The notes under the pieces: generated by a model
What the model was told of the DNA's origin: nothing
What the model saw: only the letters and a program-made list of their open reading frames with translations
The model's database searches: none
DNA from: a virus
Taxonomy: Duplodnaviria; Heunggongvirae; Uroviricota; Caudoviricetes
Strand: one strand, 5' to 3'
Virus record (IMG/VR): IMGVR_UViG_2700989519_000005
DNA: 6,313 nucleotides
Shown: positions 2,534 to 2,844 of the stretch, one piece after another
How the letters are laid out: the number at the start of each line of letters is the position of its first letter
Numbering within the stretch: the stretch's first letter is position 1
Translations under genes and position numbers: made by a program

Positions 2534-2608
2534 TGGAGCGGGCAGCGGGAATCGAACCCGCATCATCAGCTTGGAAGGCTGAGGTAATAGCCATTATACG
2601 ATGCCCGC
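2534..2608 (-). tRNA. tRNA-Gly (anticodon UCC)
   Basis: Minus-strand sequence GCGGGCATCGTATAATGGCTATTACCTCAGCCTTCCAAGCTGATGATGCGGGTTCGATTCCCGCTGCCCGCTCCA folds as a cloverleaf with acceptor stem GCGGGCA/TGCCCGC, anticodon loop CUUCCAA and encoded CCA. It appears essentially identical to my recollection of E. coli glyT. Confidence 0.85.
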
Positions 2609-2611
2609 ATA

Positions 2612-2687
2612 TGGTGCCGACTACCGGAATCGAACTGGTGACCTACTGATTACAAGTCAGTTGCTCTGCCTGCTGAGCTAAGTCGGC
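2612..2687 (-). tRNA. tRNA-Thr (anticodon UGU)
   Basis: Minus-strand GCCGACTTAGCTCAGCAGGCAGAGCAACTGACTTGTAATCAGTAGGTCACCAGTTCGATTCCGGTAGTCGGCACCA has acceptor GCCGACT/AGTCGGC, D-stem GCTC/GAGC, anticodon stem ACTGA/TCAGT, loop CUUGUAA and encoded CCA. Close to E. coli thrU by recollection. Confidence 0.85.
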
Positions 2688-2689
2688 GC

Positions 2690-2766
2690 TGGCCCACCAC
2701 CGAGGACTCGAACCTCGCACCGTCAACTTAGAAGGTTGATGCTCTATCCGGATGAGCTAGTGGTGG
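2690..2766 (-). tRNA. tRNA-Arg (anticodon UCU)
   Basis: Minus-strand CCACCACTAGCTCATCCGGATAGAGCATCAACCTTCTAAGTTGACGGTGCGAGGTTCGAGTCCTCGGTGGTGGGCCA has a perfect 7-bp acceptor stem CCACCAC/GTGGTGG, D-stem GCTC/GAGC, anticodon stem TCAAC/GTTGA, loop CUUCUAA, T-stem CGAGG/CCTCG and encoded CCA. The 5' C1 is unusual but paired with G72. Confidence 0.8.
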
Positions 2767-2767
2767 T

Positions 2768-2844
2768 TGGTGGCCCTTGCTGGACTTGAACCAGCGACCT
2801 GGCGATTATGAGTCGCTCGCTCTGACCAACTGAGCTAAAGGGCC
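2768..2844 (-). tRNA. tRNA with CAU anticodon, most like tRNA-Ile2 (lysidine; ileX/ileZ-like); Met by anticodon alone
   Basis: Minus-strand GGCCCTTTAGCTCAGTTGGTCAGAGCGAGCGACTCATAATCGCCAGGTCGCTGGTTCAAGTCCAGCAAGGGCCACCA has acceptor GGCCCTT/AAGGGCC, anticodon loop CUCAUAA and a T-arm that looks identical to what I recall for E. coli ileX. Only 1 nt separates it from the Arg tRNA. Confidence 0.8.

Follow-up and report, generated by a model that had tools for sequence, protein, structure and literature searches.

The analysed window, a 6,313-nt stretch of viral DNA from IMG/VR record IMGVR_UViG_2700989519_000005, is an IS-flanked remnant of a lambda-like prophage that is no longer able to make phage. 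ARAGORN identified exactly four tRNA genes, arranged head to tail and all on the minus strand: an Ile2-type tRNA with the anticodon CAU (2768..2844), tRNA-Arg with UCU, which reads AGA/AGG (2690..2766), tRNA-Thr with UGU, which reads ACA (2612..2687), and tRNA-Gly with UCC, which reads GGA/GGG (2534..2608). The spacers measure 1 nt (A, 2767) between Ile and Arg, 2 nt (GC, 2688-2689) between Arg and Thr, and 3 nt (TAT, 2609-2611) between Thr and Gly. A first-pass annotation made from the letters alone had every coordinate, the gene order, the anticodons and the spacer lengths right, and had left the minus strand unmentioned. The covariance-model scan that it proposed as a check showed that the four genes fold as tRNAs with the anticodons claimed, scoring 70.5, 56.4, 69.8 and 64.9 bits in the above order against Rfam RF00005 (gathering score, 29 bits). 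With these scores and E-values of 1e-10 to 1e-14, all far past the threshold, the calls are not due to chance. Each gene encodes its CCA end and has a full cloverleaf with U8, G18G19, U33, a purine at position 37 and TTC in the T-loop, and the locus is a genuine, well-formed four-tRNA cluster. A promoter-like match at 2620..2593 was treated as a chance occurrence, as the surrounding letters are the same as in host thrU/glyT and its TATAAT is the D-arm of glyT. Plus-strand Rfam matches ('Plastid-ycf2' and weak sRNA hits) were discarded as antisense-tRNA or terminator artefacts, all of them far under the gathering scores.

The neighbouring genes were assigned by profile searches. Upstream of the array lies the late antiterminator gene Q (3044..3460, minus strand, given as the longest ORF), which matched PF06530 Phage_antitermQ with an E-value of 5.8e-54. 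The RefSeq start of its homologue is 36 nt further in, and the RefSeq name in a 99.7% identical prophage is 'antiterminator Q family protein'. Downstream lies a class II, S21-type holin gene (2026..2241, minus strand; PF04971, E 5.5e-35), the first of the lysis genes, followed by genes for lysozyme and Rz. The array therefore sits between Q and the lysis genes, as the first-pass annotation had stated. An ORF of 59 amino acids in the interval between array and holin (2417..2238) had no Pfam or PHROG match and was not counted as a gene. Between Q and the array, an intrinsic-terminator hairpin (2933..2957, minus strand; CCCGCC-UCCG-GGCGGG followed by U6) was read from the sequence and folded, and is presumed to be tR'. 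A simple terminator scan had missed it because A/U pairs that lengthen the stem use up the T-run. A consensus scan of the expected interval (2958-3043) did not locate the late promoter pR'. The same pR'-terminator-tRNA order is annotated in phage 21, and the overall layout, with Q, terminator, tRNAs and holin all on one strand, is shared by the records of the Stx2 phage and of phage 21.

A sigma-70 promoter for the tRNA operon was predicted by a promoter scan at 2854..2882 on the minus strand. It consists of a -35 element TTGCAG (2882..2877), a 17-nt spacer and a -10 element TATTAT (2859..2854), and the 5' end of the first tRNA lies 9 nt past the -10 element. This interval had been put forward as a candidate promoter in the first pass, and conservation bore the proposal out: the geometry TTG(C/A)NN-N17-TATTAT-N9 recurs in 104 of 109 related arrays, in which the promoter spacer and the flanks vary. 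The module of promoter and array was found beside at least four different Q types, with variable intervening ORFs. Since pR' must match its Q and these Q types are unrelated, we rejected the possibility that the conserved promoter is pR' itself. The retention of the promoter beside different Q types suggests that the array is its own transcription unit, downstream of the tR'-like terminator. With 1-3 nt between genes, internal promoters would not fit, and a single precursor for the whole array, as had been claimed, is the only reasonable reading.

Two long hairpins lie between the array and the holin gene on the minus strand (2402..2527, comprising 2527..2482 and 2474..2402), with a minimum free energy of -46.9 kcal/mol and a z-score of -3.94 against 200 shuffles. 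In related phages they are conserved together with the array and the holin gene, and neither stem is followed by a canonical T-run. We infer that they end transcription from the tRNA promoter ahead of the lysis genes. The related phages contain 49 distinct downstream sequences, which are too heterogeneous for reliable alignment.

Comparison with K-12 genes indicated that the CAU gene is of the Ile2 type, with ileX and phage ileZ as homologues. It is identical to ileX at 69 of 76 positions, the differences including a compensatory change of C6-G67 to U6-A67, it is closer to ileX than to the metT type, and RefSeq labels it tRNA-Ile. Its acceptor stem (GGCCCUU/AAGGGCC) holds C4-G69 and C5-G68, which are determinants for TilS (PMC2500205). 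The tRNA-Met determinant for TmcA, C27-G43, is replaced by A27xC43. C34 would accordingly be expected to be modified to lysidine, and the tRNA would then read AUA; the identities assigned in the first pass hold. The Arg gene has an argN-type scaffold, homologous to argN (UCG) of Stx2 phage F349, with an unusual first pair, C1-G72, and stems that are Watson-Crick paired throughout. The E. coli ArgRS identity set comprises A20, C35, U36 and A/G73. The gene contains these elements, with A20 in the D-loop AUCCGGAUA, the anticodon UCU and the discriminator G73, as well as U33 and A37, and it is predicted to be an Arg acceptor.

The Thr and Gly genes have their source in the host thrU-tyrU-glyT-thrT-tufB operon. 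The Gly gene is identical to K-12 glyT at all 75 positions, and the Thr gene matches K-12 thrU at 74 of 76, the two differences being the D-loop changes U16C and U20C; its anticodon arm is that of the host gene, the CUG/CAG motif included. The TAT between the two genes corresponds to the host bases that border the segment lost from thrU-tyrU-glyT. The near-identity of this pair to thrU and glyT and the loss of tyrU had both been recognised in the first pass, and our comparison upheld them: tyrU and its 116-nt spacer are absent, as are thrT and tufB. The region upstream is not homologous to the host operon, and no homology to that operon extends past the Gly CCA. The fused Thr-TAT-Gly pair also occurs apart from the rest of the array, in C. 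braakii, E. ruysiae and Stx phage phi467 prophages. The suggestion that such tRNA loci serve as hot spots for both integration and recombination survived in part. Recombination within the tRNA genes does occur, a hybrid Thr gene in E. albertii being one example, but nothing supports a role as integration site: no integrase or att-like feature lies beside the array, and the IS insertions of the window are in Rz and beyond a DnaC-like gene, none in the tRNAs.

We compared the array with known phage tRNA clusters. As had been claimed, ileZ-argN-argO of an Stx2 phage (Stx2a_F349, AP012530.1) occupies the same slot in the same orientation, after Q and ahead of stx or the lysis genes. The Ile and Arg genes of the window are homologous to ileZ and argN, many Stx phages being 88.4% identical to them across 172 nt, and the promoter geometry is common to both clusters. 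However, the Stx cluster is made up of three genes that lie 1 and 13 nt apart, whereas that of the window contains four with spacers of 1, 2 and 3 nt. In addition, Stx argN carries UCG and reads CGA/CGG, and a separate argO holds UCU, whereas in the window the argN-type scaffold itself carries UCU. No argO homologue was found among the array genes, slots 3 and 4 being derived from thrU and glyT. The description of the array as ileZ-argN-argO with Thr and Gly added thus has to be revised: argO is absent, and slot 2 is an argN homologue with the anticodon of argO. Phage 933W is another Stx phage with an ileZ-argN-argO cluster. A search of one literature collection found no paper on the ileZ, argN and argO genes or on the tRNA genes of 933W.

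Phage 21 carries Asn(GUU)-Thr(UGU) just after pR'/tR' and before S21, and one of its two tRNAs decodes ACA, as in the window. The tRNA bodies are nevertheless unrelated: of 76 positions, 26 differ between the phage 21 Thr gene and thrU, and the former lacks the CNG motif. The first tRNA directly follows the terminator, which leaves no room for a separate promoter, and Ile, Arg and Gly genes are missing. The cluster of phage T4, which comprises Arg-UCU, Ile-CAU, Thr-UGU, Gly-UCC, Ser, Pro, Leu and Gln, includes the four anticodons of the window as a subset of its eight, and its tRNA sequences are not known to be related to those of the window. T4 is a virulent phage, its tightly packed multimeric precursors are cut by RNase P, and some of its tRNAs lack an encoded CCA. 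Late-region tRNAs in the form of the Asn(GUU)-Thr(UGU) pair of phage 21 are also reported for SfI, Sf6 and ST64T, with a bias towards ACA noted for SfI (PMC3636060). The array is ordinary phage cargo of an already known and annotated kind.

The distribution of the array was examined in bacterial genomes and in IMG/VR. It is present, and annotated, in 603 of 5,426 complete E. coli genomes (~11%), with poultry, cattle, water and commensals among the sources. The 1-2-3 nt spacing was found in 90 of 120 IMG/VR loci. The array of the window is 100% identical to those of intact prophages of EIEC, and one S. flexneri genome contains three such arrays. One intact relative is the prophage at mlrA of E. 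coli CFSAN029787. Across relatives, compensatory substitutions preserve the stems of slots 1, 2 and 4, among them a C6-G67 to U6-A67 variant of the Gly gene, which points to selection for functional tRNAs. The anticodons vary among relatives, with UCG, UCU, UUU, UGU or UAU in slot 2 and UGU or UUU in slot 3. Slot 2 of the commonest relative carries UUU, which reads AAA, not a rare codon, and in some relatives the anticodon stem is changed from CAGUA to CAUCA. Signs of decay were also observed in relatives: C33, a D-arm deletion or U8C in slot 2, which RefSeq leaves uncalled in some genomes, and a Gly gene turned into a 'Val' copy that lacks one acceptor base and the CCA.

Codon usage was compared between the 63 CDS of the 99.7% identical intact prophage and 42 K-12 genes. 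The prophage is enriched in AGG (6.0-fold), AGA (5.3-fold), AUA (2.9-fold), ACA (2.8-fold) and GGA (2.5-fold), and when the 61 sense codons are ranked by over-representation, five of the top six are read by tRNAs of the array (hypergeometric estimate, ~6e-6). The ipaH moron of the intact relative contains 9 AGA, 6 AGG and 8 AUA in 541 codons. However, the enrichment is stronger in early genes than in late genes, and in lambda, which is free of tRNAs, AUA, AGA, AGG, ACA and GGA are just as frequent as in the prophage with the array. The enrichment is generic to lambdoids and does not require the tRNAs. The expectation from the first pass that the prophage would be enriched in the cognate codons was thus confirmed against the host (2.5- to 6-fold) and for ipaH, but not against lambda, nor as a feature centred on the late genes. 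Since lambda is equally rich in these codons without carrying the tRNAs, the enrichment shows that the tRNAs would be useful, not that they caused the codon choice, and this control weakens codon usage as proof of tRNA function.

We favour, with modest confidence, the interpretation that the array is a self-contained tRNA operon, carried as late-region cargo, that supplies four non-redundant decoders of A-ending codons. Transcription from the conserved sigma-70 promoter would start 1-3 nt upstream of the first tRNA, with a predicted start at about 2846-2847, and yield one precursor of ~310 nt. RNase P would cleave the 5' end of each tRNA, and 3' exonucleases would trim the 1-3 nt remaining on the upstream 3' ends to the encoded CCA. 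In the lysogen the operon is probably expressed from its own promoter, and during lytic growth two further effects would raise its expression, namely read-through from pR' under Q antitermination and amplification of the genome. The tRNAs made would enlarge the pools of four low-abundance species, which in E. coli/Shigella are the sole known decoders of AUA (Ile2), AGA (Arg-UCU), ACA (Thr-UGU) and GGA (Gly-UCC). Lambdoid and other horizontally acquired genes, ipaH of the intact relative included, use these codons several times more than the host core does, and their translation should accordingly become faster or more secure with the added tRNA. Such a supply role agrees with the canonical structure of the four tRNAs, the conservation of promoter and spacing, the match between anticodons and codon usage, the use of the same slot in Stx phages and phage 21, and the frequency of the array among E. 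coli genomes. Several observations speak against it. The Gly gene is identical and the Thr gene nearly identical to the host copy, and these two could therefore act by dosage only. Supply of rare-codon tRNAs does not explain UUU in slot 2 of the commonest relative or the Asn gene of phage 21. Finally, lambda has the same codon use, the enrichment is greater in early genes though the array lies in the late region, and the remnant cannot make phage.

A different role, as a backup against tRNA-cleaving nucleases of competitors, namely P2 Old and the PARIS nuclease AriB of P4-like satellites, was absent from the first-pass interpretation. On this explanation, the phage Thr(UGU) gene and the Lys(UUU)-like and Asn genes of relatives replace cleaved host tRNAs; we consider it rather unlikely as the main function of the array. 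P2-OLD cleaves the host tRNA-ThrU(UGU) and thereby aborts the growth of lambda, which phage Thr(UGU) tRNAs restore (PMC12445682). The Thr gene of the window is lambdoid, and lambdoid phages are natural victims of P2 Old. The AriB targets, tRNA-Lys(UUU), Thr(UGU) and Asn(GUU) (PMC12409363), coincide with the 'non-rare' anticodons in the slot, which are Asn-Thr in phage 21 and UUU in slot 2 or 3 of relatives. Moreover, one of the two changes that separate the window Thr gene from thrU, U16C, is a change published to impair AriB cleavage of tRNA-Lys, and the C16 state occurs in a resistant T5 tRNA (PMC12409363). The phage 21 Thr gene is devoid of the CNG motif, which OLD needs. Published nuclease-resistant phage tRNAs (T5 Lys/Thr/Asn against PARIS and coliphage Thr(UGU) against P2-OLD) include the UGU anticodon found in the window. 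Unlike them, the window Thr gene retains the full host anticodon arm: positions 28-30/40-42 are CUG/CAG, the stem has 5 bp, and the AriB site is kept. Resistance to OLD requires a change of the CNG motif at 28-30/40-42 plus a shorter anticodon stem, and additional copies of the host ThrU protect little or not at all (PMC12445682). With its intact CNG palindrome and 5-bp stem, the window Thr gene was rejected as a P2-OLD-resistant tRNA. For AriB, resistance involves a base change in or close to the cleavage site U36AAUC|A41 (PMC12409363), and positions 36-41 of the window Thr gene read UAAUCA, the unsubstituted site. The published effect of U16C was measured on tRNA-Lys, not on Thr, and few tRNA positions are under as little constraint as 16 and 20, such that neutral drift explains U16C and U20C equally well. 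We know of no nuclease that targets Ile2, Arg-UCU or Gly-UCC in such a setting; the codon match covers four tRNAs, whereas the backup explanation covers one.

A broader version, which we judge unlikely, would make the lambdoid late tRNA slot a fast-evolving counter-defence cassette against P2/P4-type Toprim tRNases and not a codon aid. The C16/C20 Thr tRNA would evade PARIS and replace the product of the single-copy thrU gene; some relatives would have re-coded the scaffolds by point mutations in the anticodon, and others would have remodelled the anticodon stem from CAGUA to CAUCA. Remodelling of this sort has been shown experimentally to defeat P2-OLD (PMC12445682).

The beneficiary could also be the host and not the phage, with the array acting in lysogenic conversion to improve expression of virulence genes that are AT-rich and were acquired horizontally, for instance the T3SS and ipaH genes of Shigella/EIEC; this is a variant of the supply role that would differ only in who gains, and we regard it as quite improbable. 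The operon's own promoter makes expression in the lysogen plausible, and the array is still intact, and unchanged from that of intact EIEC prophages, in a remnant that is flanked by IS elements and belongs to a genome of the Shigella flexneri type. One S. flexneri genome has three arrays, and the ipaH gene linked to the array is rich in AGA, AGG and AUA. However, the array is widespread in E. coli of many sources, commensals included, and the remnant is perhaps simply young. That the array is a functionless passenger, in which host thrU/glyT were captured and joined to what was left of ileZ-argN, hitch-hiking as a by-product of recombination, is very hard to credit, because the decay of slot 2 and Gly (to 'Val') in relatives and the places where RefSeq leaves slot 2 uncalled stand against four fully canonical genes in the window, stems maintained by compensatory changes, and a promoter and 1-2-3 spacing kept across diverged flanks.

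Transfer RNAs downstream of Q have already been published for P21, SfI and Stx phages, and different lambdoids carry different tRNA sets in the same slot. The anticodons in this slot that do not read rare codons (Lys UUU, Thr UGU and Asn GUU) are published targets of PARIS or P2-OLD, and this common array family, with its natural variants, is a ready panel for studying temperate-phage tRNAs against tRNA-cleaving defences. If the supply role holds, the array would be a further case of temperate phages carrying tRNAs for AT-leaning mobile genes, a concept that is established, and it would help in annotating such loci and in explaining how prophage effectors such as ipaH and Stx are expressed.

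ARAGORN scanning of the whole window detected four tRNA genes, all on the minus strand, and no others. In transcription order, they carry the anticodons CAU (CAT; slot 1, 2768-2844), UCU (TCT; slot 2, 2690-2766), UGU (TGT; slot 3, 2612-2687) and UCC (TCC; slot 4, 2534-2608) and are separated by 1 nt (A), 2 nt (GC) and 3 nt (TAT), exactly matching the anticodons, order and spacing described in the first-pass annotation. A covariance-model scan with the Rfam tRNA model (gathering score, 29) likewise returned all four, at 70.5, 56.4, 69.8 and 64.9 bits, respectively. Position-by-position checking showed that each gene contains a full cloverleaf, U8, G18G19, U33, a purine at position 37, a TTC T-loop and an encoded CCA. 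The four-tRNA array is a genuine feature.

Pfam searches placed a DnaC/IstB-like ATPase, a DnaB helicase, NinH and Q (PF06530; 3460..3044; E 6e-54) upstream of the array and a P21-type holin (PF04971; 2241..2026), a lysozyme and Rz downstream of it, all on the minus strand. A minus-strand 209-aa ORF between holin and endolysin (1393-2022) matched no Pfam family, and its sole match was PHROG 1085 (function unknown); a YdfR-family gene occupies its place in related phages. Between Q and the array, CCCGCC-UCCG-GGCGGG with U6 directly after it (2957..2933) folds into a strong hairpin in the position of tR'. The phage 21 record has the same order as the window: Q, pR' with a Q-binding element, terminator, tRNAs and S21. 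The first-pass observation was correct and its description largely right.

Positions 397-6252 of the window are 99.7% identical to a 45-kb prophage adjoining mlrA in E. coli CFSAN029787, and positions 111-6279, which include the IS junction, are 99.7% identical to Shigella flexneri SFBU1023. Because of this match and because the junction was absent from all complete E. coli genomes searched, we infer that the window comes from a Shigella-type genome and is a prophage remnant flanked by IS elements. The remnant is 5.9 kb long, with SFBU1023 as its best match. IS sequence occupies 1-396 and 6253-6313, with a second repeated element beginning near 6253, and an IS3-family orfA (HTH_Tnp_1; 331..77) inserted at ~396 truncates Rz, and Rz1 embedded in it, at their 3' ends. 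Near its tail-fibre end, the intact relative in CFSAN029787 encodes a Lom homologue and contains ipaH, a T3SS effector gene that is frameshifted there (L010 6037-7679).

Comparison with host genes showed that slot 4 is identical to K-12 glyT (75/75) and that slot 3 matches thrU at 74 of 76 positions, the sole changes being U16C and U20C in the D-loop, consistent with the near-identity noticed earlier. The host operon has the order thrU-tyrU-glyT-thrT; as had also been noted, tyrU is missing from the prophage, together with a 116-nt spacer. The TAT spacer of the Thr-Gly pair equals the host bases flanking the missing tyrU segment on both sides, which is weak evidence that the pair may have originated by deletion. 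Citrobacter braakii and Escherichia ruysiae prophages, as well as Stx phage phi467, contain the fused Thr-TAT-Gly pair by itself, so this two-gene module is mobile. Slots 1 and 2 share 88.4% identity with the ileZ-argN genes of Stx phages. Slot 1, labelled tRNA-Ile in RefSeq, matches ileX at 69 of 76 positions, with the differences including a compensatory C6-G67 to U6-A67 change; both TilS determinants, C4-G69 and C5-G68, are retained, and A27xC43 replaces the tRNA-Met determinant C27-G43. Slot 2, with all stems paired and with A20, C35, U36 and G73, has the argN scaffold with an unusual C1-G72 pair, and its anticodon, UCU, is the one carried by argO in Stx phages. Given these origins, the array is an Ile-Arg module fused to a Thr-Gly module, and its earlier reading as ileZ-argN-argO plus two further genes had to be abandoned.

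A promoter scan identified TTTGCA-18-TATTAT at 2883..2854, equivalent to TTGCAG-17-TATTAT, whose -10 element stops 9 nt short of the first tRNA. The candidate promoter suggested previously (2854-2882) gained support from the IMG/VR sample, in which TTG(C/A)NN-N17-TATTAT-N9 was present in 104 of the 109 arrays with enough upstream sequence, even though their promoter spacers and upstream flanks belong to roughly a dozen diverged families. That the promoter is pR' was rejected, because the same promoter-plus-array module is found beside Q genes of at least four types, with differing ORFs between them; its conservation and independence of Q type indicate that it is the array's own. Transcription from it would begin 1-3 nt 5' of the mature tRNA end. 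Since spacers of 1-3 nt are too short to hold internal promoters, the array would be transcribed as one precursor, for which RNase P cuts and 3' exonuclease trimming would be the only reasonable processing route, by analogy with established E. coli tRNA maturation.

A constitutive promoter facing the lysis genes would need a stop downstream of the array. Two long hairpins with perfect stems of 11 bp and about 14 bp lie directly 3' of it on the minus strand (2527..2482 and 2474..2402; -46.9 kcal/mol, z = -3.94). They had no Rfam match and neither has the canonical terminator form; they are candidates that may end tRNA-promoter transcripts before the lysis genes. A third inverted repeat is located at about 2346-2403, and phage HK639 contains a stretch 79% similar to the hairpin region, unannotated there.

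At least 80% of the 311-nt array was found in 603 of 5,426 complete E. coli genomes, ten of them with at least 99% identity to the window. RefSeq annotates the array tRNAs, as do the GenBank records of phages vB_EcoM-606R7, vB_EcoS-689R5 and PhiR47_1 (94-95% identity). One S. flexneri genome has three copies of the Thr-TAT-Gly junction, which is also present in E. coli, E. albertii, E. ruysiae and C. braakii. tRNAs downstream of Q have been reported in SfI, Sf6, ST64T, PS3 and P21, and SfI was noted to be biased towards ACA (PMC3636060). This kind of element is already known and is annotated in hundreds of genomes; no description of the window's four-gene composition was found in the searchable literature. 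Among the IMG/VR matches listed, 90 of 120 loci keep the 1-2-3 spacing, 67 have the composition Ile-'Lys'(UUU)-Thr-Gly and 19 the window-type Ile-Arg(UCU)-Thr-Gly.

The slot-2 gene (2690-2766) was compared with loci L001, L002, L005, L006 and L008 and IMG/VR loci L012-L131, among the matches listed. The argN-type scaffold carries UCU in the window, UCG in Stx argN, UUU in the majority, UGU in E. coli CE0026a, where nt 35 is the only difference from the UUU form, and UAU in three loci. The common UUU form, which has C33 where U33 is nearly universal, as well as U73 and a mismatched A51xC63, may be a decaying or non-canonical tRNA; some slot-2 copies have a D-arm deletion or U8C, and in some genomes slot 2 has no RefSeq tRNA call. 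In five of the 120 IMG/VR loci listed (L054, L077, L095, L099 and L112), slot 3 has UUU for UGU plus A26G; here, independently of slot 2, a second scaffold has acquired the Lys anticodon. A CAGUA to CAUCA change in the 3' anticodon-stem strand of Thr(UGU), which destroys one CNG motif and cuts the stem to 3 bp, was found in E. coli RMDEC332 (L004 3177-3252), E. albertii (L139 about 5553-5628) and one IMG/VR locus. The E. albertii gene (L139 5548-5631), which ARAGORN did not call as a tRNA, is a hybrid with the 5' 26 nt of the phage 21 Thr and the rest of thrU type, which directly demonstrates recombination within these tRNA genes. The RMDEC332 Gly gene (L004 3102-3173) reads 'tRNA-Val' (UAC), and since one base of its 3' acceptor strand is deleted and CCA is lost, it is decayed, not re-coded.

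It is conceivable, though rather unlikely, that the array, especially Thr(UGU), serves to evade tRNA-cleaving defence nucleases. P2-OLD is the effector of the classic P2-lambda interference, and its lethality stems from cleavage of host tRNA-ThrU(UGU) at paired anticodon-stem CNG motifs; surplus host ThrU gives no protection, a phage Thr(UGU) rescues only with a CNG change and a shorter stem, and P2-OLD resistance of phage tRNA-Thr is reported for CNG loss with a shortened stem (PMC12445682), the combination seen in the CAUCA variant. Slot 3 wholly keeps the host anticodon arm and is thus predicted to be OLD-sensitive by the published rules. PARIS AriB targets tRNA-Lys(UUU), Thr(UGU) and Asn(GUU), cutting at U36AAUC|A41, and its cleavage of tRNA-Lys is impaired by U16C in the D-loop, the state in the resistant T5 tRNA (PMC12409363). 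The restriction of slot 3's differences from thrU to U16C and U20C is suggestive for PARIS, but the AriB site is kept, positions 16 and 20 are among the least constrained in tRNA, and the U16C effect was measured on tRNA-Lys, not Thr. Across the family, the argument carries more weight than for the window's Thr alone: the non-rare-codon anticodons in the lambdoid slot, Asn (P21/SfI) and UUU (slots 2 or 3 of relatives), coincide exactly with the PARIS target set, and the phage 21 Thr lacks the CNG motif (anticodon stem GUCGC/GCGAA). In phage 21 (L143 39591-39746), Asn(GUU) and this diverged Thr(UGU) directly follow the annotated tR'; Asn, Thr and Lys(UUU) together are the published AriB target set.

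For codon usage, 63 annotated CDS from the near-identical intact prophage were set against 42 K-12 genes. Among the 61 sense codons, the six with the strongest over-representation were AGG, AGA, CGG, AUA, ACA and GGA (prophage/host ratios of 6.0, 5.3, 3.6, 2.9, 2.8 and 2.5), five of which are read by the array, with a chance probability that we estimate at about 6e-6; the remaining one, CGG, is the codon that Stx-phage argN(UCG) would read, and GGG ranked eleventh. Of the proposed enrichment of cognate codons in late or moron genes, the excess over the host was borne out (2.5- to 6.0-fold), as was that in ipaH of the intact prophage, which is very rich in these codons (9 AGA, 6 AGG and 8 AUA in 541 codons), but not the focus on late genes, since enrichment was higher in early genes. 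These codons are as frequent in lambda (no tRNA genes) and phage 21 (only Asn and Thr) as in the tRNA-carrying prophage; given these controls, the array fits lambdoid codon demand, yet is carried without higher demand. The tRNAs are clearly dispensable for the lambdoid life cycle.

Each of the four host counterparts is a low-abundance tRNA and alone decodes its A-ending codon (AUA, AGA, ACA or GGA), making these tRNAs natural bottlenecks. We consider supplementation of these four non-redundant tRNAs, whose scarcity may be intrinsic or nuclease-induced, from an autonomous operon to be the most likely function, with somewhat better than even confidence; the operon would probably be constitutive and further boosted by late transcription, and either phage or host, or both, could benefit.
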